From: Thermococcus barophilus MP
GTDB lineage: Archaea; Methanobacteriota_B; Thermococci; Thermococcales; Thermococcaceae
Direction of reading: 5' to 3'
Assembly (NCBI RefSeq): GCF_000151105.2
Contig: NC_014804.1
Span: 1,514,567 to 1,538,566 of the forward strand
DNA: 24,000 nt
The notes beneath the pieces were generated by a model that saw nothing but the letters and a program-made list of their open reading frames with translations, was not told where the DNA came from and made no database searches. The translations under genes and the position numbers were made by a program. How positions within the stretch are numbered: the stretch's first letter is position 1; each line of letters begins with the position of its first letter. Positions 1,478 through 17,503 of this stretch are shown piece by piece.

Positions 1478-2095
1478 TCAAGCAGAGCTCTCAAGCAGTC
1501 TGAGGAAAATTCCTCCAACACCTTCAACCATCATCTGCGCACCAATTGCCATCGTAAAGAGACCAATTATCCTGATGAAGACACCCAAAGTTGTCTTGCT
1601 TATGTTCTCTATCATATAGAGCGTCACAAACATCAGCAGAGCAGTCAGCAAAATCGCTATCAAGATAGCCGAGGCGGAGACCTTTATACCATACTCCGCT
1701 GTCAGGGTGATTGCAGTTGTTATCGCAGCAGGTCCTGCTATAAGGGGAGTTGCAACAGGAACAGCAGCCAAGGCTAAGATGTTCTTCTCCTTCTTGAGCG
1801 TTACCATGCCGCCACCTTCCAGTGCCTCAAGACCTATTTTAAACAGAACAAACCCTCCAGCAATCTTCAAGGCATTCAAGTCAATGTGAAAAATGTCCTG
1901 GAGGATTATTTTACCAGCTACTGCAAAAATTATGAGCAGGATAAAGCCGATTAAGTTTGCCCTGATGATGAGCTGCTTTATGTCTTCTATGTGAAAGTCC
2001 TCCCTAAGTAGGCTAACCAAGAGGATCTTATCGCTCGGATCAATCATGATTAGCATCAGCAGTGAGGCGCTGAGGATTTCTCCAATCATCGACAT
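1478..2095 (-). CDS. MarC/UPF0056 family integral membrane protein
   Basis: About 205 aa and almost entirely hydrophobic helices, with an AGPAAITT-type motif typical of MarC-family proteins. The ORF track starts at TTG 2098; the adjacent ATG at 2095 is more likely. Confidence 0.7.
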
Positions 2096-2131
2096 CAACC
2101 TTTTGAACGATGGCCAGCTTATAAAGTTATG

Positions 2132-2533
2132 CTACCTGTCTTTCATTAGCTTCATGAATTCATTGGGGGTGTAAACTTTGCTGTACCATTCAAAGTCTTT
2201 CTTGTTGTTTGTTATCAGCGGAGCGTTAAGCTTCACTGCTAACGCGCCTATCATGTAGTCTCTTGCGTTTTTTGAAAAATCCCATCTACCAAGAGCATTT
2301 TTCACAACAATCTTGGCACACTCATCATCAAATGGATAAACCCTTATTCCCAAGACATTAAGAAAGGCATCAACATAGGCTTTACCTTCCTCATAACTAC
2401 CACGCTTTTTTGCATGGTGGTAAAGGTACTCTATATACGCCACTGCACTCAGTATAGGTTCATGGGGACTTTTCTTAAGCCATTTGAGGAACTCTTTATC
2501 ATGAAGAACGTTTGTGTCAAGAACTATCTTCAT
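2132..2533 (-). CDS. vapC: PIN-domain ribonuclease toxin VapC
   Basis: 133 aa. The N-terminus MKIVLDTNVL carries the first PIN acidic residue, with further conserved acidic positions downstream. It overlaps the upstream antitoxin gene by 17 nt, the classic vapBC arrangement. Confidence 0.85.
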   Translation of the reverse strand: MKIVLDTNVLHDKEFLKWLKKSPHEPILSAVAYIEYLYHHAKKRGSYEEGKAYVDAFLNVLGIRVYPFDDECAKIVVKNALGRWDFSKNARDYMIGALAVKLNAPLITNNKKDFEWYSKVYTPNEFMKLMKDR

Positions 2534-2759
2534 CTGCTTTCCTCCTGAAAATTTTACTAAGCCCTTCCCTCATTTCTTCAGTGGTCTCATCAATGTCCTT
2601 TGAAAGCTCAGTCATTTCTTCAAGAAGGTCTTCGAATTTCATGATCACGTACCCTTCCTTAGTCTTGACAAAGACAACCTCATCACCAGCCTTTATATTG
2701 AGTGCCTCCCTAACCTCCTTGGGAATTGTTACTTGGTATTTCCTTGTAACAGTTACCAT
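2517..2759 (-). CDS. vapB: AbrB/SpoVT-type antitoxin VapB
   Basis: MVTVTRKYQVTIPKEVREALNIKAGDEVVF is a swapped-hairpin AbrB/MazE-like DNA-binding motif. The ORF track extends to 2810, but the ATG at 2759 has GGTGA 5 nt upstream, and the extra N-terminal 17 aa look like read-through. Confidence 0.8.
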   Translation of the reverse strand: MVTVTRKYQVTIPKEVREALNIKAGDEVVFVKTKEGYVIMKFEDLLEEMTELSKDIDETTEEMREGLSKIFRRKADEDSS

Positions 2760-2839
2760 TACAATCACCAAAATGTAATACCAAAATGAGGTTAATAAGG
2801 CTATCGTCACCTATTTTAATATGCGTCGTGGAGAATAAA

Positions 2840-3060
2840 GTATGCGATGATGAAACCGGGGTCTTCTTCACGTGAGTTTTCGTGAACCCACGTGAAGATT
2901 CATTCCCCGTGCAACGACGGGTGCCCAGACTTAGACCGTCCCGCCCACTCTTCTTCTCGTTTAGTTCGCTACGGCGGAACGGGTCGCCCGAACACCCACC
3001 GAGTTCAGCCAGCCCTCTACCTCGCCTTGCTCACAGACTTCATTGGACCGGCATCATTAC
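2840..3060 (-). ncRNA. unclassified GC-rich structured RNA with two kink-turn hairpins (ends approximate)
   Basis: Hand count over 2851-3060 gives 120/210 G+C (57%), versus 9/40 in the flanking 3061-3100. On the minus strand G=73 and C=47. Read on the minus strand the region folds into a nested structure. Closing helix: 3057-3052 with 2852-2847. Arm Kt-A spans 3051-3009. A central arm has helices 3001-2993/2923-2915 and 2982-2973/2945-2936. Arm Kt-B spans 2908-2858. Five G-U wobbles in these helices would be C-A mismatches on the plus strand, and the two k-turn motifs (AAU bulge plus tandem G-A/A-G) exist only in the minus reading. A BRE/TATA-like CGAAATACTTAAATA sits about 27 nt upstream of 3060 on the minus strand, and a T-rich CTTTATTCT follows the 3' side. 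Confidence 0.55.
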
Positions 3061-3100
3061 CAAAAACTATTTAAGAACATATGTATTTAAGTATTTCGGT
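3061..3100. promoter_or_regulatory. divergent promoter region with TATTTAAG direct repeat and imperfect palindrome
   Basis: TATTTAAG occurs at 3068-3075 and again at 3084-3091. ACATATGT (3077-3084) is the core of an imperfect 20-bp palindrome spanning 3071-3090. The first box lies about 26 nt upstream of the GGTGA/ATG of the RHH gene. The second, read on the minus strand as CTTAAATA with an upstream CGAAA, lies about 27 nt from the RNA 5' end. Confidence 0.35.
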
Positions 3101-3107
3101 GAATACG

Positions 3108-3269
3108 ATGGGAGTCATAACCGTGAAAATACCCGACGATTTAGAAGTGAGGTTCCGAAAGAAAATCCTCGACGTTTATGGCGTCAAAAAAGGAGCACTT
3201 GGGAAGGCGATAAGTGAGGCGATCGAACTATGGCTGGAAAAACACGAAAAATCCGGAGAGCGGAAGTAA
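3108..3269 (+). CDS. ribbon-helix-helix (CopG/Arc-like) DNA-binding protein
   Basis: 53 aa from ATG 3108, with GGTGA at 3098-3102. The layout is beta strand VITVKIPDDL, helix EVRFRKKILDVYG, turn KKGAL, then helix GKAISEAIELWLEK, which is the RHH pattern. The ORF track starts 9 codons earlier at 3081. The gene overlaps the next gene by 40 nt. Confidence 0.75.
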   Translation: MGVITVKIPDDLEVRFRKKILDVYGVKKGALGKAISEAIELWLEKHEKSGERK

Positions 3270-4291
3270 ATTACATAACCATAAAGACAAGACTCAAACC
3301 AGAAACAAAAGACGACTACTTAAAACTTGCACTCCTCTGCGAGAGGTTCAAAAAGGCAGTAGAATTAGCAATACGATTTCAACTAAAGGGTCTCAAGAAG
3401 AGCGAGGGCGTGAAAGAAATATCACGGCTAATCCTTAACAACTGGTGGTATTCTGATAGTGCGTGGGATTATGCGAAAATGTTGTTGAAAGGGACAACAC
3501 AAAACGGTGGGAATCCAAAACATATTCACCTGAAGTCAAAGTTCCTCATCAGCAAACCAAAGGAGAATGAAAACGGAAACAGAAACGTGAGAATGGAAGG
3601 GGTGAAGGTTAAAATACGCTCGAACGGGGAGTGGCTGAATTTCAAACTCAAAACAGTGGGAAAATTTCTTCCGGTTGTTCTCAACGCTCAAAAGTCCAAA
3701 TACGGTGCACAGATAGTCCTGAAGAATGGGAGGGCTTATCTGCACTTGCAAATCCCATTCTGGATTTATCTTGAGCATTTTAGGAGAACCACAAAGGGAC
3801 GGTTGTATGCGGGTTTTGACTTGAACTCGGACAGGGTGAATATGGTTATTCTAGACGAGAACGGGATTATTCGGGACGTTAAAGTTGTGCATTTTCCAGA
3901 GGTTAATTCTCCGGGTTTCTCTAAGTGGAAGGCGAAGGACTCAAGGGTGAAGGCTCTCTCCCAGCTACTTGACTATGCGTATTATCACGGTGTTAGGGTC
4001 GTGTTTTTTGAGGATTTAGAGAGGATTAAACGCAGGAATGGAAAGGCTGCGAGTTCGAGGAGAGGAAACAGGAAGGCGTTAAATTTTGCTAAGAAGGAGT
4101 TATTGGAACACGGGGTTATTATAGCGTTGAAAAGGGGCTTCGAAGTGTTTTTGGTTAATCCCGCTGGTTCTTCCAAGTTGGGAAAAGAATTAAGTCGGAG
4201 ACTGGGTTTTGACGTTCACTCATCGTCAGCATTCGTTATTGGTTGGTGGGGATTAAACTACCTGAAAACTCACAAAATAAAGAACAATTAA
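3230..4291 (+). CDS. compact TnpB-like RuvC-fold protein lacking the zinc ribbon (IS200/IS605 OrfB-derived, stand-alone)
   Basis: 353 aa. The N-terminus VNYITIKTRLKPETKDDYLKLALLCERFKKAV resembles the TnpB N-terminal strand-helix. RuvC-I is AGFD(197)LNSD, RuvC-II is VVFFE(261)DLERIK, and FLVNPAGSS (residues 307-315; VNPAGSS at 309-315) stands in for the NPAYTSQ motif. RuvC-III is GFD(328)VHSSSAFVIG, compared with DRDxNAAxNI. The whole protein has one Cys (C37), so no CxxC...CxxC zinc finger exists. No tnpA is adjacent. Confidence 0.8.
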   Translation: MAGKTRKIRRAEVNYITIKTRLKPETKDDYLKLALLCERFKKAVELAIRFQLKGLKKSEGVKEISRLILNNWWYSDSAWDYAKMLLKGTTQNGGNPKHIHLKSKFLISKPKENENGNRNVRMEGVKVKIRSNGEWLNFKLKTVGKFLPVVLNAQKSKYGAQIVLKNGRAYLHLQIPFWIYLEHFRRTTKGRLYAGFDLNSDRVNMVILDENGIIRDVKVVHFPEVNSPGFSKWKAKDSRVKALSQLLDYAYYHGVRVVFFEDLERIKRRNGKAASSRRGNRKALNFAKKELLEHGVIIALKRGFEVFLVNPAGSSKLGKELSRRLGFDVHSSSAFVIGWWGLNYLKTHKIKNN

Positions 4292-4315
4292 TTTTGGGCA
4301 CTGGATGATTGGTAA

Positions 4316-4942
4316 TTAGCGCTCGGTTGGCTGAGCCCTCTCAAAACGGTATATGTCAACCTTTATTCTCTCCAACCTCTTTCGATGGAAAAAGAACTGA
4401 GCTGGAATTTCAAAGTCAACTGTTAGTCGGTGCGTTATTGTAAAGCCATTATCCCTAACAAATGCCTCGATGAATTTCCTAACTTCAGGCTTTGCCAGAT
4501 GAATAGAATAGACAACTTTGCTTATTTCAAAAGCTTTGAGAAGAAAAGGTCTGTCTGCTTTTGGATTTTGAGAGCCAAAGGGAGGATTCATGATGACAGC
4601 ATCAGCTTGCTTATCAAAAAAGCTCACATCGGATAAAATCAACTCAACACAGGTTTCCACACTCAATGCCTTTACATTTTCCTCTGCTATTTTCAAAGCA
4701 CTCTCATCTATTTCAACAGCGTAAACCTTTTTTGCCCCCAAAAGGCAAGCTCCCACACTTAAAACTCCAGTACCTGCACCTAAATCGGCTATAACTTTGC
4801 CTTCGACATCACCCAAAGAATAAGCCAACCATAAAAGCTCAGCTGCAACGTTTCCCGGAGTTCTATATTGTTCGAGCTCTGCTTTAGGATTTTCAAACCC
4901 TTTGAGCCTTGAGAGGAGCATTGCAAGGTGCTTCTTCTTCAT
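4316..4942 (-). CDS. METTL5-like SAM-dependent N6-adenine RNA methyltransferase (COG2263 family)
   Basis: 208 aa with the SAM motif I DLGAGTGVLSVGA, an acidic loop AVEID, and the catalytic NPPFG motif (VIMNPPFGSQ). The N-terminus KAELEQYRTPGNVAAELLW is typical of the archaeal METTL5 homologue family. Confidence 0.8.
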   Translation of the reverse strand: MKKKHLAMLLSRLKGFENPKAELEQYRTPGNVAAELLWLAYSLGDVEGKVIADLGAGTGVLSVGACLLGAKKVYAVEIDESALKIAEENVKALSVETCVELILSDVSFFDKQADAVIMNPPFGSQNPKADRPFLLKAFEISKVVYSIHLAKPEVRKFIEAFVRDNGFTITHRLTVDFEIPAQFFFHRKRLERIKVDIYRFERAQPTER

Positions 4943-5326: not shown

Positions 5327-6370
5327 TCACCTCTTTGGAAGCTTTAGACTTATTCCAAACGGCTCGTCTTTTTCTCTCTTACCCCCAAGAATTTCATCAA
5401 ACTCATACTCTTCTCTCAAGCCAAGCAGTAGTTCAACTTCAGGAGGAGTTAATATGGGCTTTCTCCATCTCTCTGCATCGTCTATTGGAACTCTCGGACA
5501 GGCAACCACAACATAGGCATCAAAATCAAAACCCTCCAAAGCCTCTGGACTTATATAGTTCATTGCTATCAGTTGTGCTTCTCTCCCGTGCTCTTTCAAG
5601 AGTTTCATTATTCTCTTGGCTTCCCCTAAGCGTAGCTGACCCCTTTTGGTGCTTATTATTACGCCAAACTTTTTGGCATCATAAGCCTTAGCAACCATTC
5701 CCCATCTCTTTCTCACAATCCTCTCCGTATTTACCCAAGAGAAGTCTCCACTGTATGGGTTAATAGCTAACGTTGGCTTTTTTGTAGCTAAAGCAACACC
5801 AATTGGATGAAAATAGCCAGCCCCAATTAATAAAATCCCATCAACATCTCTTCCAACCCTTGCCGCTGTAAAGTTGCACCCCAAAATCTGTCCAGCAAAT
5901 GAAACTCTATTATCTCCTTTGCCAATGAAAACTCGGAAGCCTTTCCCTTCTAAAAACTGCTTTGCTCTTTCCAAATCCCTTATGTGCTGAACCGTGGTTA
6001 CAAGAGCAATTTTTCTGCCAAGCTTTTTAATCTCGTTTAAATTCTTCTCCAAAGCTTTCACAACATCAACCTTGGCAAAAGCAGGGACAAAGAGGGTTGG
6101 AACTTCCAGATTAAGCTGCATGTAAGAGTGACCCAAATGGATCAGAGCATCACAGCCGAGCATCTTAGCCTCTCTATCCGCTAAATCGCAAGCTCCATAA
6201 TTTATGTCGCCACTTATTATCGCTTCAACTCCGTTCTTTCCCAAAAATTCAGCCAAAGCTTGGGCTTCTTTCTTTAACCCTTCTGGAGTCTGAATCAACA
6301 CTTTCTTAGCATTCAGCTCTCTGATCTTTTGAAGTATCTCTTGGAAAGGAATCTCATGCAAGATACTCAC
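5327..6370 (-). CDS. dph2: 2-(3-amino-3-carboxypropyl)histidine synthase Dph2 (diphthamide biosynthesis)
   Basis: LHEIPFQEILQKIRELNAKKVLIQTPEGLKKEA...INYGACDLADREAKMLGCDALIHLGHS matches the radical-SAM Dph2 family as I recall the Pyrococcus horikoshii protein. The ORF track starts at ATG 6403, which sits almost on a TATA-like AAATATAAAG (6415-6406). GTG 6370 or TTG 6361 downstream fit the homologue's N-terminus better. Confidence 0.9.
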   Translation of the reverse strand: MSILHEIPFQEILQKIRELNAKKVLIQTPEGLKKEAQALAEFLGKNGVEAIISGDINYGACDLADREAKMLGCDALIHLGHSYMQLNLEVPTLFVPAFAKVDVVKALEKNLNEIKKLGRKIALVTTVQHIRDLERAKQFLEGKGFRVFIGKGDNRVSFAGQILGCNFTAARVGRDVDGILLIGAGYFHPIGVALATKKPTLAINPYSGDFSWVNTERIVRKRWGMVAKAYDAKKFGVIISTKRGQLRLGEAKRIMKLLKEHGREAQLIAMNYISPEALEGFDFDAYVVVACPRVPIDDAERWRKPILTPPEVELLLGLREEYEFDEILGGKREKDEPFGISLKLPKR

Positions 6371-6459: not shown

Positions 6460-7557
6460 ATGAGAAAGGTGGCACTAATTTTTATCATAACAATGCTCGC
6501 TTTTTATGCTCTTGCCCAACAGCCTTATGATGAAGTTGCAAAAGCAGTTTTTGAAAGCCTAAAAACTGGAAATTACTCAATTCTTGAGCCATATTTGGAC
6601 GAAAATATGAAGGAGGCTTTTAATGAAAAATCCTTCAATGCTTTAAGGGAACAGATGATTTCAAAATACGGCGGTCTTAAAAGCTTTGAATTCATTGAAG
6701 AAGGAAAATCCGGAAAATTTGCACTGGCGTATTATCGTTTTCAGTTTGAAAAAGCTAATGTGACACTAAGGCTCGTTTTTAGTCAAACCAACGGGGAATA
6801 CAAACTTTCCGGGCTCTGGATTCAGAAAGTTGTCTGGAGGGAGAAGGGAATTCCCCTTCCGTTGGCAGTCGGTTTACCTATTTTAGGTGGAATCTTAGCT
6901 CTGTTAACATTCTACACTCTCGGATTCAAAAAAATCAAAGGAGCGGAACTAATTTTAGGCTTCTTTTTGGTTGCAATAACACTTTTCATTCAGCCAGTAA
7001 TTCAGCAGGCTCCATTCTTAGCCTTAGGGATTAAATCAAACGCAGATATAACTGCTAAGGGGTTTGCTTTTACAGCTATCACAGCTATTTGGCTTGGATT
7101 CATTGCCGGATTCTTTCAAGAGGGCCTGAAGTATGCCTTTATGAGGAACAAGCGGCTTAAGGAAGCACTCTTCGTTGGAATTGGATTTGGGCTTGGAGAA
7201 GCGATCTTAGTGCCGTTGCTTCAGGTAGTTCAAAGCTTTATTCTGGGAGGATTAACTGTTCAGCTAACACAAGCACTGCTTAGCTTGTTTGAAAGATACA
7301 TTGCAACACTTTTCCATGGAGGAACCACTATTACATTGGCATACGCTTATAAGAATGGATTTGGGAGGAAAGCGTTAGTTGTCCTAAGCATTGTTCACGG
7401 TGCTATCGATACGTTTGCGTCATACTATCAGCTCACGAACTCCCAGATAAGCTTAATAATGACCTACGGCACAATCACTGCTATTACGCTCATACTACTG
7501 TGGTATGCCATTCCAAAAGCGAAAGTAGAAGGGGAGGAAGGAAAGGTTGTTTGGTGA
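6460..7557 (+). CDS. membrane protein: N-terminal extracytoplasmic domain plus polytopic CPBP/YhfC-like putative intramembrane metalloprotease domain
   Basis: Start at ATG 6460, with GGTGA 5 nt upstream (the ORF track starts at 6394). A signal/anchor MRKVALIFIITMLAFYALA is followed by a ~120-aa soluble domain and then 7-8 TM helices. These carry E/H motifs (FFQEGLKY, GFGLGEA, TLFHGG, IVHGAID) reminiscent of YhfC/CPBP glutamic/His intramembrane proteases. Confidence 0.5.
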   Translation: MRKVALIFIITMLAFYALAQQPYDEVAKAVFESLKTGNYSILEPYLDENMKEAFNEKSFNALREQMISKYGGLKSFEFIEEGKSGKFALAYYRFQFEKANVTLRLVFSQTNGEYKLSGLWIQKVVWREKGIPLPLAVGLPILGGILALLTFYTLGFKKIKGAELILGFFLVAITLFIQPVIQQAPFLALGIKSNADITAKGFAFTAITAIWLGFIAGFFQEGLKYAFMRNKRLKEALFVGIGFGLGEAILVPLLQVVQSFILGGLTVQLTQALLSLFERYIATLFHGGTTITLAYAYKNGFGRKALVVLSIVHGAIDTFASYYQLTNSQISLIMTYGTITAITLILLWYAIPKAKVEGEEGKVVW

Positions 7558-15561: not shown

Positions 15562-15639
15562 GGGGCCGTGGGGTAGCTTGGCCTATCCTTCCGGCTTCGG
15601 GAGCCGGGGACCCGGGTTCAAATCCCGGCGGCCCCACCA
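15562..15639 (+). tRNA. tRNA-Pro (anticodon CGG), CCA encoded
   Basis: Acceptor stem GGGGCCG/CGGCCCC. Anticodon stem CCGGC/GCCGG with loop TTCGGGA, giving anticodon CGG. T arm CCGGG-TTCAAAT-CCCGG, discriminator A, and a genomic CCA. A BRE/TATA-like CGAAATCTTTATAA sits about 30 nt upstream. Confidence 0.93.
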
Positions 15640-15738: not shown

Positions 15739-17503
15739 ATTTCAATTCTCTTAGAGTCTTATTGGAACAGAGGTAGTGGCTGATACGGTTAAGGCTACTT
15801 TGGAAGCTTTCAATTCTCTTAGAGTCTTATTGGAACTTGCAGTTTGTTAGGACGCACTTTTTAATAGATGTAGCTAAGTCTTTCAGAACTTTCAATTCTC
15901 TTAGAGTCTTATTGGAACTGTCGTAAATGCTAAGATTATTCTCGATAAAGCCGCCTTTCAATTCTCTTAGAGTCTTATTGGAACATCATTTGGGGAGCAA
16001 CAATCATGCTCTTTGGCATAATCTCTTTCAATTCTCTTAGAGTCTTATTGGAACTTTGTATTAGTAGCGTCAGCACTTGCAGCGGTTAGGGCTTTCAATT
16101 CTCTTAGAGTCTTATTGGAACCATTCTGAAGAAGGCTGGATATGTTAAACAAGTGACTACCTTTCAATTCTCTTAGAGTCTTATTGGAACTTCAAAGATA
16201 TGCTTAGCTATTGCCGCATCTTTGATCTTTCAATTCTCTTAGAGTCTTATTGGAACGCAGATTTGGATCGCTGGAGGGCCGTATTGGGTCGCAACTTTCA
16301 ATTCTCTTAGAGTCTTATTGGAACCTTGGTAACTGCTTTGAGTAACTGACTTTTCGCTAAGCCCTTTCAATTCTCTTAGAGTCTTATTGGAACCTCAAGA
16401 GCCACGACCATCACGCTCCTTCTTTATTTCTTCTTTCAATTCTCTTAGAGTCTTATTGGAACTTGACCCAGAAAGAGACCAAGAAGAAGAAGCGTTTTTT
16501 TACTTTCAATTCTCTTAGAGTCTTATTGGAACATAATCCTCTTAGGATGCAGCTTAATATCTGGGATATCCTTTCAATTCTCTTAGAGTCTTATTGGAAC
16601 ACGCCGAATGCGCTCACAGTTGAGCCTTGGATACCGGCGGATGCACTTTCAATTCTCTTAGAGTCTTATTGGAACTTTGCTCAGTGTAAAGTTGCCTTGC
16701 CAATTCAGCTTGATGATTGCTTTCAATTCTCTTAGAGTCTTATTGGAACCGATGTCCACCATTAAAGTGTGCTCGTAAGTCGTCAACTTTCAATTCTCTT
16801 AGAGTCTTATTGGAACTTCCAAGCCGATCCTTTTCGTGGAAAAAAGAACTCGAACTTTCAATTCTCTTAGAGTCTTATTGGAACAAGAAGAAATCGAGCG
16901 GTTGAAAGCGGAGCAATGGTCGTCTTTCAATTCTCTTAGAGTCTTATTGGAACGAGCAAGCTTGGATTGAGGTAATAGCTGCGTGCATCACTTTCAATTC
17001 TCTTAGAGTCTTATTGGAACACTCCGTTTGTAGTTACAAAGAAGAATTTGCCCTCATCTTTCAATTCTCTTAGAGTCTTATTGGAACATCCACATTGGTG
17101 TTCTCATTTTTGGAATAGTATTCACAATCTTTCAATTCTCTTAGAGTCTTATTGGAACTGCTCGAAGTATTCAATACAACATTTGTCAATATAACAGCTT
17201 TCAATTCTCTTAGAGTCTTATTGGAACTTTTATGATGATTTTGAGACAGCATTAGACACGGCAAAACTTTCAATTCTCTTAGAGTCTTATTGGAACTTAC
17301 TATTCATCGTCGGCTCACTTGTGGGCAAAAAAGCCTTTCAATTCTCTTAGAGTCTTATTGGAACTCTGAGAATCATTGCAACCTCACCTCAATGCGAATT
17401 TTCTTTCAATTCTCTTAGAGTCTTATTGGAACTGGAACCTGATCGGTTCCATCATCATAAAGAGTCTTCTTTTCTTTCAATTCTCTTAGAGTCTTATTGG
17501 AAC
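15739..17503 (-). CRISPR. CRISPR array, 26 x 30-nt repeats, 25 spacers; no cas genes in window
   Basis: Plus-strand repeat is CTTTCAATTCTCTTAGAGTCTTATTGGAAC, which reads GTTCCAATAAGACTCTAAGAGAATTGAAAG on the minus strand. In order from 15769, spacers are 38,52,36,40,37,39,36,38,39,39,40,38,45,44,37,38,39,37,37,41,39,39,38,38,41 nt. Only the repeat at 15739-15768 is degenerate (first plus-strand base A instead of C). This marks the leader-distal end, so transcription runs on the minus strand, consistent with the ATTGAAAG 3' end that gives the 8-nt crRNA handle in P. furiosus. Confidence 0.97.

Follow-up and report, generated by a model that had tools for sequence, protein, structure and literature searches.

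A k-turn RNA, an RHH gene and a TnpB-like gene form one mobile element of heat-loving archaea

In Thermococcus barophilus MP a k-turn RNA adjoins an RHH gene and a TnpB-like gene, and together they make up a mobile element of 1.44 kb that belongs to heat-loving archaea (Table 1; positions are those of the window, the 24,000-nt stretch of contig NC_014804.1 that was analysed). A sequence-only reading of this DNA had noticed three parts packed together, and all of them lie, where that reading placed them, within a single insertion of 1,439 bp. We propose that the insertion is a tnpA-less IS200/IS605-type (OMEGA) element of the RHH/MazE-TnpB clade and that the k-turn RNA is its omega RNA, a reading that we favour with moderate confidence. 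This RNA is probably the guide that had long been missing for this TnpB group, which we infer to be RNA-guided. The proteins of the module are not undescribed, as had been supposed: the pair is clade RIIIr-4 of a computational survey (Altae-Tran et al. 2023 PNAS, PMC10691335), and Rfam already models 73 nt of the crenarchaeal RNA as the family RF02814, Sso133. What appears to be new here is the link to the RNA.

Table 1. Features of the element and its borders in the window
Feature	Position	Strand	Details
Whole mobile element	2858..4296	.	1,439 bp; empty-site comparison with L011
Conserved structured RNA scaffold (candidate omega RNA)	2858..3061	-	about 204 nt; fold and covariation
5' hairpin, nested Kt-1 and Kt-2	3009..3051	-	most conserved part of the RNA family
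Kt-1	C-stem 3051-3045/3015-3009	-	bulge AAU 3044-3042; G3041.A3016, A3040.G3017; from sequence
Kt-2 (inside Kt-1)	stem 3038-3036/3021-3019	-	bulge 3035-3033; G3032.A3022, A3031.G3023; from sequence
Central domain, long helix with inner hairpin	2915..3001	-	consensus helices 4 and 5
3' terminal hairpin with Kt-3	2858..2908	-	ends GACCCC at the element boundary
Kt-3	GGGG 2908-2905 / CCCC 2861-2858	-	bulge AAU 2904-2902; G2901.A2862, A2900.G2863; from sequence
Candidate guide segment GGUUUCAUCAUCGCAUACUU	2838..2857	-	flank DNA beyond the scaffold; length a guess, transcription presumed
AT-rich block	3062-3107		between RNA and RHH gene
Palindromic bidirectional promoter/candidate RHH operator	3065..3096	.	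20-nt inverted repeat, 80% complementary
RHH (Arc/CopG-type) gene	3108..3269	+	53 aa
TnpB-like gene	3230..4291	+	353 aa, TnpB/Cas12f fold
Candidate TAM/target-site motif 5'-TGCC-3' (RNA-sense strand)	4297..4300	-	directly 5' of the element's non-RNA end

Element ends and empty sites

The boundaries are defined by a syntenic Thermococcus MAG (L011), in which window position 2857 is joined straight to 4297 with no gap and the flanks are 89-92% identical to those of the window. A run of C leaves an ambiguity of up to 2 nt at either boundary. A Sulfolobales-type population provides another occupied/empty pair (L097 and L098). Insertion is seamless, as both pairs are colinear in their flanks, with no target duplication beyond the 2-nt ambiguity. 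L011 also has an element copy of its own, 78% identical, ~0.6 kb away and in the opposite orientation, for which window 2244-2248 is the unoccupied site. This copy is accompanied by a 435-bp difference (window 1814-2248 is absent there), and therefore the event was not a simple insertion. A 340-nt insertion in L074 relative to L127 proved to be a different element. By these comparisons of sequence, the element is mobile on evolutionary timescales.

Three unoccupied sites have GCC directly on the 5' side of the insertion point (a slash marks the point: GTGCC/GG in L011, CTGCC/TC in L098, and GCGCC/TATCATG at the window site of the L011 copy), as do about 45 junctions. In five Thermococcales copies the flank has YGCC at its end. 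YGCC as a strict motif gave way to GCC without a preceding G once the base before GCC had been counted at 34 distinct Sulfolobales-type junctions (T 17, A 9, C 8, G 0). The Desulfurococcales subgroup ends ...AGCCC/ and has no obvious GCC flank.

The element has just two ORFs, those of the RHH and TnpB-like proteins, and no Y1 (HUH) TnpA transposase is present among the ORFs of 2858-4296. The element ends 5 nt past the stop codon of the TnpB-like gene, and a convergent methyltransferase gene ends at 4316, so that no space is left for an RNA 3' of the TnpB-like gene; the usual omega-RNA position had rightly been called unavailable.

The k-turn RNA and its relatives

The sequence-only reading had placed a structured RNA on the minus strand from 3060 to ~2840. 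The RNA is real and its k-turns are present, but its scaffold ends at 2858, where conservation stops exactly at ...GAAGACCCC. TATA box spacing puts the probable 5' end near 3061. The minus strand of 2858-3062 folds at -90.4 kcal/mol (z = -5.6, a value that 0 of 200 shuffles reach), z is -1.0 for the plus strand there, and GC content is 0.56-0.62 in the RNA region versus about 0.40 in its surroundings. When 12 euryarchaeal homologues are aligned, 97% of cells are paired and 20 of the 45 pairs change on both sides, compared with 34-48% paired in slid controls. The sense strand is fixed because of invariant U-G pairs.

The k-turn signature (C-stem, 3-nt bulge, tandem G.A/A.G, NC-stem) is present three times in the window RNA. 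In the 5' hairpin the bulge U and every G.A/A.G position stay the same across 25 sequences from Euryarchaeota and Crenarchaeota, and an inner stem pair covaries between G-U and C-G (10 vs 15 sequences). The register that RNAalifold gave this region (U20-A41 etc.) was shifted; the k-turn register was preferred because the G.A bases are invariant and 17-36 covaries. Helices 4 and 5 of the central domain are 98-100% paired, and 8 of their pairs show compensatory changes. The stem of the 3' hairpin contains 7 such pairs, and GGGGRAUGAA and GACCCC are invariant or nearly so. GACCCC ends the scaffold in five Thermococcales copies, five Archaeoglobales copies (six with a solo copy) and seven Sulfolobales copies, and other termini are found in L004, the seventh Archaeoglobales copy (AAACUCCG), and in Desulfurococcales (GAGAAACGGU). 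A helix joining the 5' and 3' ends in the first fold (AUGAUGCCGG with CCGGUUUCAUCAU) was rejected, its 3' arm being flank DNA that is not kept in relatives.

The variable segment that had been sought beside a conserved scaffold starts exactly at the scaffold's 3' end. Similarity stops there among five Thermococcales copies and among seven Sulfolobales copies, and solo and linked copies of one genome also diverge at this point. A guide had been expected at ~2846-2825; the candidate now runs from 2857 down to about 2838. The stretch is already present in the empty site of L011 and has no second match within the window, as a flank-derived guide predicts. The suggested connection to the vapBC promoter is incidental, since the RNA-side flank is ordinary target DNA, unchanged in the relative's empty site.

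The RNA is co-conserved with the two protein genes, as it should be if they belong together, and the three form one unit in unrelated contexts. At every locus inspected in Thermococcus, Pyrococcus, Archaeoglobus and Desulfurococcales the RNA gene is upstream of the operon and divergent from it, in different neighbourhoods, and this arrangement extends over four orders (Thermococcales, Archaeoglobales, Desulfurococcales and Sulfolobales). A covariance model of the 5' double-k-turn hairpin (R1), run on 72 TnpB-like loci, matches 42 of them at 154-236 nt from the gene start, with an outlier (L048) at 56 nt. Among 19 misses that were inspected, 17 have a diverged k-turn RNA at the same place; 11 further misses fall outside this count.

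Wide occurrence of the RNA without the genes had been named as an observation that would break the link. The RNA does occur alone: metagenome contigs have 44 solo copies and 50 copies linked to the genes. The solos carry the element's other end. Such MITE-like mini-elements, composed of the RNA gene and the other end of the element, are common; they keep exactly the terminal ~200-nt block, and the conserved TATA box is present in them too. Solo copies fit trans-acting guides, and they also fit an RNA that has its own function.

The window RNA has no Rfam match at gathering thresholds, nor at E <= 10 on 2700-3200. A weak sR20 C-box match on the plus strand (2843-2871) was discarded; it covers mostly flank DNA, which is present in the empty site too. 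RF02814 matches the crenarchaeal homologues on the predicted strand at 45-94 bits, both in copies beside TnpB-like genes and in solo copies. This family, Sulfolobus sRNA133, corresponds to the central domain of the Sulfolobales and Desulfurococcus versions, and its 73-nt model includes neither the double k-turn hairpin nor the 3' k-turn hairpin. Judging from these matches, the Rfam orphan Sso133 is part of the RNA in its crenarchaeal form, and shared 5' hairpin, position and termini argue that the window RNA and the Sso133-type RNAs are the same wider family. A literature search for Sso133 returned unrelated matches only, with no TnpB link recorded in searchable papers, and no report linking this RNA to an RHH/MazE-TnpB operon was found in the searchable literature.

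Proteins, promoter and known relatives

Assigning the proteins to families required NCBIfam, homologues and predicted structure, as the local copy of Pfam gave no match for the window RHH or the 353-aa protein. The latter matches TIGR01765 at 2e-20, with weak matches to TIGR01766 and guided_TnpB, and Pfam PF27229 (SSO2105_N) is found on all of its homologues. Its AF2 model (pLDDT 87.7, pTM 0.80) predicts a Cas12f/TnpB-type fold (WED-REC-RuvC), and the best PDB folds found by Foldseek are Cas12f (E = 2e-10), Cas12k and ISFba1 TnpB. The RuvC site consists of D197, E261 and H330, and D328 is close by. The D, E and H do not vary among 34 homologues; His330 occupies the RuvC-III position of the canonical D-E-D triad. 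"Zinc-ribbon-less" was an apt description, as the protein has one cysteine and no CxxC, and a short helix replaces the zinc finger in the alignment. Protein lengths in the clade are 335-370 aa. With the RuvC-III His for Asp and the missing zinc finger, nuclease activity is putative. A PDB sequence search gave no match, a literature search for SSO2105 found nothing, the phage collection contained no relatives, and the plasmid collection contained distant Thermus proteins only (24% identical, larger and in a different context).

The start of the RHH gene is backed by homologues beginning MGVITVKI. The protein is 53% identical (E = 6e-17) to the partner protein in Archaeoglobus, which reaches the Pfam RHH_6 threshold, and in crenarchaeal relatives an AbrB/MazE-type protein takes its place. 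Both the 40-nt overlap of the RHH and TnpB-like ORFs and the AT-rich divergent promoter block are as first described. The block contains a palindrome with two TATTTAAG boxes (3068-3075 and 3084-3091), both of them kept in L001 and L003, and a Sulfolobales copy (L057) has an equivalent 25-nt palindrome at the same place. An archaeal spacing of about 26 nt suggests which direction each box would serve.

The upstream RHH or AbrB/MazE gene, the missing zinc finger, the RuvC-III His and the archaeal host place the unit in RIIIr-4, a clade with the same protein pair in euryarchaeal and crenarchaeal hyperthermophiles. The authors of that clade reported the Asp->His change, the lack of a zinc finger and the AbrB/MazE-type protein in the upstream position, predicted a toxin-antitoxin pair, classed it as non-mobile, and located its presumed guide RNA in a 'long untranslated 3' region' (PMC10691335). 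In contrast to that description, the 3' region in the window is 5 nt and the RNA is upstream and divergent; and there are defined ends, empty sites, multiple copies and mini-derivatives.

IS200/IS605 OMEGA systems include ISDra2 TnpB with its omega RNA and the tnpB-only IS1341-type elements. Like them, the window element has a RuvC-fold TnpB and a ~200-nt structured RNA at one end, with a scaffold conserved up to the element boundary and a flank-derived variable segment beyond it; because the RNA reads outward at the element end, the guide would be flank DNA. Further likenesses are non-autonomous mini-derivatives and an insertion that is seamless and 3' of a short motif, as both occupied/empty pairs show. 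IS200/IS605 insertion sequences have imperfect subterminal hairpins at both ends; the window copy has a strong one on the RNA side and no clear one on the other. The layout had been compared to IscB or tracrRNA, but an RNA at the element end reading outward is the canonical TnpB omega position, and it is the genes that are inverted. Unlike in IS200/IS605 OMEGA elements, tnpB and the RHH gene are on the strand opposite the RNA, so the RNA, on the other strand and at the other end, does not overlap the 3' end of tnpB and has a promoter of its own. The three k-turns in the scaffold, the absence of a zinc finger, the D-E-H site, the candidate TAM GCC and the lack of tnpA also differ, although IS1341-type elements likewise lack tnpA.

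Other known systems share parts of this arrangement. Arc (RHH) binds and represses the bidirectional intergenic promoter of IS605-family transposons (Moon et al., bioRxiv 10.64898/2026.09.24.754181), which also have a small RHH inside a TnpB-bearing element, beside such a promoter. Those elements are bacterial, contain tnpA, and pair arc with tnpA, divergent from tnpB, whereas in the window the RHH gene would be co-transcribed with tnpB and divergent from the RNA, with a predicted operator at 3065-3096. Archaeal L7Ae/k-turn RNPs, box C/D sRNPs among them, have the same 3-nt bulge and tandem sheared G.A, and two adjacent k-turns in a single hairpin are also known there; euryarchaeal RNase P RNA contains a double k-turn module (PMC5499556). 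The window RNA differs from them in having no C/D or H/ACA box arrangement and no guide-for-RNA architecture, and in being transposon-borne.

Proposed mechanism and alternative readings

We propose that the palindromic central promoter fires both ways. Rightward, it would give a short-leader mRNA for the RHH protein and a translationally coupled TnpB-like nuclease; leftward, a ~205-nt scaffold RNA would be transcribed past the element end, and its 3' tail would therefore copy flanking DNA. L7Ae probably stiffens the scaffold at its three k-turns. We hypothesize that the scaffold loads into the zinc-finger-less TnpB and directs it to the flank sequence preceded by GCC, in other words to the unoccupied target site. 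Such targeting would secure retention or homing of the element, a role demonstrated for IS605 TnpB in bacteria. Repression of the palindromic promoter is the most likely task of the RHH (or AbrB) protein, which might hold TnpB in check as well. Several points weigh against this OMEGA reading: the RuvC-III His, the missing zinc finger and the absence of a Y1 transposase, the shortness of GCC and the Desulfurococcales exception to it, the 435-bp difference at the L011 copy, the solo state of almost half of the metagenome RNA copies, the published classing of the clade as non-mobile with a toxin-antitoxin role, and the lack of an Rfam match for the window RNA.

If the OMEGA reading is correct, a TnpB clade whose guide RNA had only been guessed at, and in the wrong place, has a concrete, testable candidate. 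The clade itself is shown to consist of mobile elements rather than a fixed toxin-antitoxin pair. The orphan Sso133 and an archaeal mini-element family would gain genetic context and a proposed function, and two RNP worlds of ancient origin, that of TnpB/Cas12 effectors and that of L7Ae/k-turn RNPs, may meet here. More tentatively, the zinc-finger-less D-E-H TnpBs of hyperthermophilic archaea could be active RNA-guided DNA nucleases with a separately transcribed, L7Ae-dependent k-turn omega RNA and a GCC TAM, and the solo RNAs, Sso133 included, could be genes for trans-acting guides. A k-turn RNP of this kind, with L7Ae for an architectural subunit, would be a first among TnpB/Cas12-type effectors and would give a naturally multi-guide, thermostable programmable nuclease system of ~350 aa. 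Very small, zinc-free, hyperthermophilic nucleases with a simple GC-rich TAM would, if active, be of practical interest for genome editing and for diagnostics at high temperature.

The toxin-antitoxin role favoured by Altae-Tran et al. 2023, who saw no mobility in the clade, is the strongest alternative, though we consider it unlikely. The RHH or AbrB protein would be antitoxin and autorepressor and the TnpB-like protein the toxin, with the RNA either arming the toxin or accessory to it. This would suit the type II layout, in which a small antitoxin-type gene (RHH or AbrB/MazE, interchangeably) lies just upstream of a larger gene and overlaps it, as well as the patchy distribution of the RHH-TnpB unit, its position beside vapBC in the window and the published AF2 co-fold, which suggests that RHH blocks the TnpB heteroduplex channel (PMC10691335). 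A chromosomal toxin-antitoxin pair, however, needs none of the transposon-like ends, seamless insertion, target motif and RNA-only mini-derivatives, and the exact end of the scaffold at the element boundary is left unexplained. The two readings are partly compatible, as a mobile element can also be addictive.

Less probable is that the conserved ~200 nt act as DNA, namely as a transposon end recognized by a trans-acting transposase, with an incidental transcript. The block is indeed terminal and is exactly what the mini-elements retain. An inverted-repeat search found strong hairpin structure at the RNA-side end, the last hairpin being a near-perfect palindrome, and no clear subterminal hairpin at the non-RNA end of the window copy; in L003 the other end shares a 13-26-nt motif with the RNA-side end in inverted orientation. 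Yet the U-G and tandem G.A pairs become A.C and C.T on the other strand, the fold energy is strongly strand-asymmetric, and a TATA box is conserved at promoter distance even in mini-elements. The correspondence of the crenarchaeal homologue to an Rfam sRNA family, and a length of 200 nt, far above the need of IS200/IS605 transposases, also speak for an RNA.

We give slightly less credence still to a domesticated regulator that represses a host promoter, e.g. that of vapBC, with a nuclease-impaired TnpB and the RNA. The models for this are TldRs, nuclease-dead, TnpB-derived RNA-guided repressors that are immobile and have a conserved host promoter target (PMC10705468). As in TldRs, a TnpB relative with an altered RuvC site, here His for the RuvC-III Asp, has a candidate guide RNA nearby; the RNA-side flank in the window is upstream of vapB, and Thermococcales genomes have a single copy. 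Unlike in TldRs, the element is mobile, with multi-copy and mini-element members elsewhere in the clade, and the altered catalytic residues are invariant, as expected of an active, rearranged D-E-H site. The flank is just the insertion site; it differs, and the candidate guide with it, in each copy and each genome, so that a conserved target gene is absent.

In hyperthermophiles, sRNAs rich in k-turns and GC are typically housekeeping RNAs, but an independent RNA of this kind (C/D, H/ACA, RNase P or SRP-like), for which these same properties and the solo copies might speak, is effectively refuted: the RNA has no Rfam housekeeping match, the other end of the element accompanies its solo copies, its linkage to the operon recurs in unrelated contexts in different phyla, and it is absent from the syntenic empty site and therefore came in with the genes.

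The RNA, its promoter and the divergent gene pair

The RNA, the AT-rich block and the overlapping RHH and TnpB-like reading frames that a sequence-only reading had placed at this locus are all where it put them, as judged by fold z-score, GC content and the frames themselves (table). The RNA strand folds at -90.4 kcal/mol with z = -5.6 against shuffles, versus z = -1.0 for the complementary strand, and direct reading gives three k-turn signatures of the standard type. HisRS, a vapBC pair and a more distant CRISPR-DR6 array surround the locus in this Thermococcales-type genome. A methyltransferase gene of the MTS type is convergent with the TnpB-like gene here and likewise in an Archaeoglobus locus (L004, 7077-7643); it is the only neighbour that the two share, and this is probably a coincidence.

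Features of the window at and around the element
Feature	Position	Strand	Remarks
PIN-domain VapC	2132-2533	minus	vapBC pair
AbrB/MazE-type VapB	2517-2810	minus	vapBC pair, directly adjoins the element's RNA end
RNA stretch	~3061 to 2858	minus	GC 0.56-0.62 vs ~0.40 nearby
3' terminal hairpin with one k-turn signature	2908-2858	minus	read from sequence
5' hairpin with two nested k-turn signatures	3051-3009	minus	read from sequence
AT-rich palindrome with two TATTTAAG boxes	3065-3096		interval between RNA and genes
Small ORF (RHH), 53 aa	3108-3269		right of palindrome
TnpB-like ORF, 353 aa	3230-4291		40-nt overlap with 53-aa ORF
Methyltransferase, MTS-type	4316-4942	minus	convergent with TnpB-like gene
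tRNA gene	15562-15636		just upstream of CRISPR array
CRISPR array	15739-17503	minus	27 CRISPR-DR6 repeats

The 353-aa protein matches TIGR01765 ('putative transposase N-terminal domain') at 2e-20 and TnpB models weakly, and Pfam PF27229 (SSO2105_N) is found on 104 of its 104 homologues. From 34 homologues AlphaFold gave a confident model (pLDDT 87.7), whose closest PDB matches are Cas12f, Cas12k and ISFba1 TnpB. In the homologue alignment FDLNSDR (D197), E261, NRK and H330 are invariant, D328 is nearly so, and the zinc-finger insert is absent; the fold is that of TnpB, with D-E-H invariant. The small protein shares 53% identity with an Archaeoglobus counterpart that reaches the Pfam RHH_6 threshold, and in crenarchaeal relatives an AbrB/MazE-type protein occupies its position. 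The pair corresponds exactly to the RHH/MazE-TnpB system assigned to clade RIIIr-4, which is archaeal, lacks the C4 zinc finger, has His for Asp in RuvC-III, and was predicted to be non-mobile, to have its putative guide RNA in the 3' UTR, and to act as a toxin-antitoxin pair (Altae-Tran et al. 2023, PMC10691335). The proteins are therefore already known, computationally, and the word 'undescribed', first applied to the whole module, does not hold for them. Elsewhere in open-access papers and bioRxiv we found one passing mention of the clade's name only. The nearest plasmid-borne relatives are larger 'TnpB-related' proteins of Thermus (528 aa, 24% identity), one of which closely follows an AbrB/PIN (vapBC-like) pair on Thermus thermophilus pTT27 (L211, 2477-4063).

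The small gene is present at every locus examined in T. henrietii, P. kukulkanii, one Archaeoglobus MAG and two Desulfurococcales MAGs, and in all of them a GC-rich sequence that aligns with the window RNA lies divergently upstream of it, in neighbourhoods that are otherwise unrelated. We ran a covariance model, built on 25 sequences of the 5' double-k-turn hairpin, on 89 loci and the window; it matched 42 of the 72 loci with sufficient upstream sequence, on the strand opposite to the gene and 154-236 nt from its start (single outlier L048, 56 nt). Nineteen of the 30 misses were inspected by eye, and 17 of these carry a diverged k-turn-bearing GC-rich sequence in the same place (the other two, L042 and L058, are ambiguous). 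Twelve euryarchaeal RNAs share a 45-pair consensus with 97% of cells paired, against 34-48% in controls with partners slid by 1-3 columns, and 20 of the 45 pairs vary on both sides. No variation is seen at the G.A bases or bulge U's of the hairpin model, and an inner pair swaps between G-U and C-G from Euryarchaeota to Crenarchaeota. The RNA sense strand is identified as the window minus strand by U-G pairs that never vary and by the tandem G.A pairs. The terminal ~200 nt is under RNA-level constraint and keeps a fixed arrangement with the operon. RNAs of the L004 type in Archaeoglobus have an extra conserved 3' extension of ~52 nt.

Element boundaries, empty sites and the target motif

In L011, a syntenic Thermococci MAG locus with flanks 89-92% identical to those of the window, window 2857 is joined straight to 4297, which identifies 2858-4296 (1,439 bp) as an insertion. 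When the two window flanks are joined, their alignment with L011 runs ungapped through the junction (...CATCCAGTGCC^GGT(T/G)TCATCATCGC..., ^ marking the junction; window empty-site sequence TGCC^GGTTTCATCATCGCATAC), and target duplication is absent save for an ambiguity of 2 nt. The element, which has no tnpA, ends on one side with the final base of the terminal k-turn stem of the RNA (...GAAGACCCC) and on the other 5 nt past the TnpB-like stop codon. A second occupied/empty pair emerged from all-against-all comparison of the fetched loci: the empty site of L098 (GTAGTACTGCC^TCATATAGTC) is filled in L097 by a 1,526-nt copy (...TACTGCC^GTCGCTAACAG...GTCCGACCCC^TCATATAG). The Sulfolobaceae genome RB850M holds four copies of ~1.5 kb, 80-87% identical and with sharp ends, and a ~300-bp derivative in which the RNA gene is fused to the element's other end. 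RNA and genes thus form one insertion unit, seamless next to GCC, with the scaffold ending at the boundary, and mini-elements exist.

L011 has its own copy of the element, 78% identical, ~0.6 kb distant and inverted, whose RNA end lies directly against the position equivalent to window 2249. Because window 1814-2248 is missing there, this insertion event was not simple. The missing 435 bp encode the N-terminal portion of a 206-aa membrane protein and the C terminus of VapC. The L011 copy sits within the vapC-equivalent region rather than beside vapBC as in the window. Both end points of the gap coincide exactly with the two ends of the L011 copy, and in the window both follow GCC (...GCCGCC^ACC and ...GCGCC^TAT). 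The absence could reflect a deletion linked to element activity.

The sequence-only reading had raised the question of a variable guide-like segment beside a conserved scaffold; in the compared copies the flanks diverge exactly at the scaffold end. Five Thermococcales copies are alike as far as GACCCC and unrelated beyond; seven Sulfolobales copies likewise end in GACCCC and then diverge; and between solo and linked copies in single genomes similarity stops at GACCCCAAA (Archaeoglobaceae) and GAGAAACGGU (Desulfurococcaceae). On the RNA-sense strand, GCC closes the DNA 5' of the element's other end (AGTGCC in the window and L003, CCGCC in L011, TCGCC in L012, ACGCC in L001), and it precedes full-length and mini copies in Sulfolobales; in 34 distinct Sulfolobales-type junctions the base ahead of it is T in 17, A in nine, C in eight and G in none. 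In one Desulfurococcales subgroup the end is different (...AGCCC^) and no GCC flank is evident. GCC also stands in unoccupied sites (GTGCC^ in L011, CTGCC^ in L098, and GCGCC^TATCATG at window 2244-2248, which matches the flank of the L011 copy) and is therefore part of the target and not of the element. This 3-4-nt motif is a candidate target-adjacent motif (TAM).

In L003 a 13-26-nt motif is shared, inverted, between the RNA 3' hairpin (CACGAAAACTCAC) and the last TnpB-like codons (5617-5647 versus 6998-7023), and more weakly in the window (2870-2885 versus 4250-4262). It could represent imperfect terminal inverted repeats or, alternatively, a remnant of an omega RNA that ancestrally lay at the 3' end of tnpB and has since undergone duplication and inversion. 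Two Archaeoglobus contigs encoding an identical TnpB-like protein differ by a 683-bp segment with a DUF973 gene (L004 4928-5610 versus L005 239-270). The segment begins ~55 nt beyond the RNA's last hairpin, which makes this a further hot spot of rearrangement at the RNA end. A Stygiolobus-type contig has a 340-nt GC-rich insertion polymorphism (L074 2345-2683 versus L127) that bears no relation to the k-turn RNA element and is possibly another MITE.

RNA copies without the genes

A metagenome scan with the hairpin motif returned at least 120 contigs, with ~5 chance matches in GC-rich bacterial DNA. Among the matches listed, 50 RNA copies adjoin a divergent TnpB-like gene, 44 are solo although at least 700 nt of upstream sequence is present, and 22 are on contigs too short for the call. 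RNA and genes are conserved together in unrelated neighbourhoods, and the RNA also occurs without the genes. Sulfolobales solos are MITE-like: the RNA gene with its promoter is joined to ~85 nt from the opposite element end, in which the last TnpB codons are retained, and the whole is bounded by HGCC^ and GACCCC^. Further solos occur in L035 (1552-1740, plus), L029 (2867-3100, plus), L048 (2980-3035) and L064 (8201-8498), in genomes that also have the full element; in L029 the solo and linked RNAs are convergent, and in L035 the TnpB-like gene is divided between two frames, as either a pseudogene or an error in the MAG assembly. L163 lacks ~890-925 nt relative to many full copies and L087 lacks ~215 nt within the TnpB-like gene; these internally deleted derivatives give a series of decay stages between the full element and the mini-element.

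The 73-nt Rfam family RF02814, Sso133 ('Sulfolobus sRNA133'), matches the central domain of the crenarchaeal RNAs on the predicted strand, in solos and in TnpB-like-adjacent copies (Metallosphaera, Stygiolobus, RB850M, Desulfurococcus). Judging by this match, the crenarchaeal version has already been recorded as an expressed sRNA, the orphan Sso133, for which no discussing paper was found among open-access papers and bioRxiv. Known beforehand, then, are the protein pair, its altered active site and this crenarchaeal fragment as an orphan sRNA. In the same literature we found neither the link between this TnpB clade and this RNA, its upstream-divergent position and k-turn architecture, nor the element boundaries, GCC motif and mini-elements.

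A candidate flank-reading guide RNA

We consider it very probable that the RNA and the genes are a module and a mobile element. That the whole is a mobile OMEGA element whose k-turn RNA serves as a flank-reading guide RNA is our best explanation, and we hold it somewhat probable. A toxin-antitoxin or addiction role for the RHH and TnpB-like pair is compatible with a mobile element, but leaves the ends, the target motif and the scaffold boundary unexplained, and we regard it as unlikely. It is more doubtful still that the terminal ~200 nt is purely a DNA-level transposon end, a reading contradicted by the strand-specific pairing, k-turn signatures, promoter and Sso133 match. Unrelated flanks speak against a TldR-like host regulator, which is quite improbable, and the sequence-only worry that the RNA is an independent housekeeping RNA is excluded by its absence from the L011 empty site.

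Like IS200/IS605/OMEGA elements, the mobile OMEGA element proposed here would run from TAM and left end to a right end with the RNA scaffold, followed by a guide equal to the flank. Unlike in those elements, tnpB and its partner gene are on the other strand from the RNA, which for this reason cannot overlap the tnpB 3' end and has its own promoter. With the archaeal spacing of ~26 nt, the predicted RNA start is near 3061, set by box B (3084-3091), and the predicted mRNA start is near 3097, set by box A (3068-3075) and followed by a GGTGA Shine-Dalgarno; the distance from TATA box to hairpin in Sulfolobales mini-elements is the same as in the window. Transcription of the RNA would continue into the flank, from 2857 to ~2838. 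In archaeal k-turn RNPs the k-turns are bound by L7Ae, which may also bind those of the scaffold. We hypothesize that the RNP recognises the empty site by GCC and the flank, and then cuts or binds it. Such recognition might favour retention or homing, as has been demonstrated for TnpB of bacterial IS605 elements (PMC10055086). The RHH protein would repress the palindromic promoter, by analogy with Arc in bacterial IS605 elements, where promoter repression has been shown (bioRxiv 10.64898/2026.09.24.754181), and may also block TnpB, as a published co-fold suggests (PMC10691335).

The flank carries a perfect C-box-like AUGAUGA at window 2847-2853 (plus), with a weak sR20 match, that pairs with the RNA 5' leader in a single-sequence fold; as it belongs to the flank and occurs in the L011 empty site too, it is probably fortuitous.
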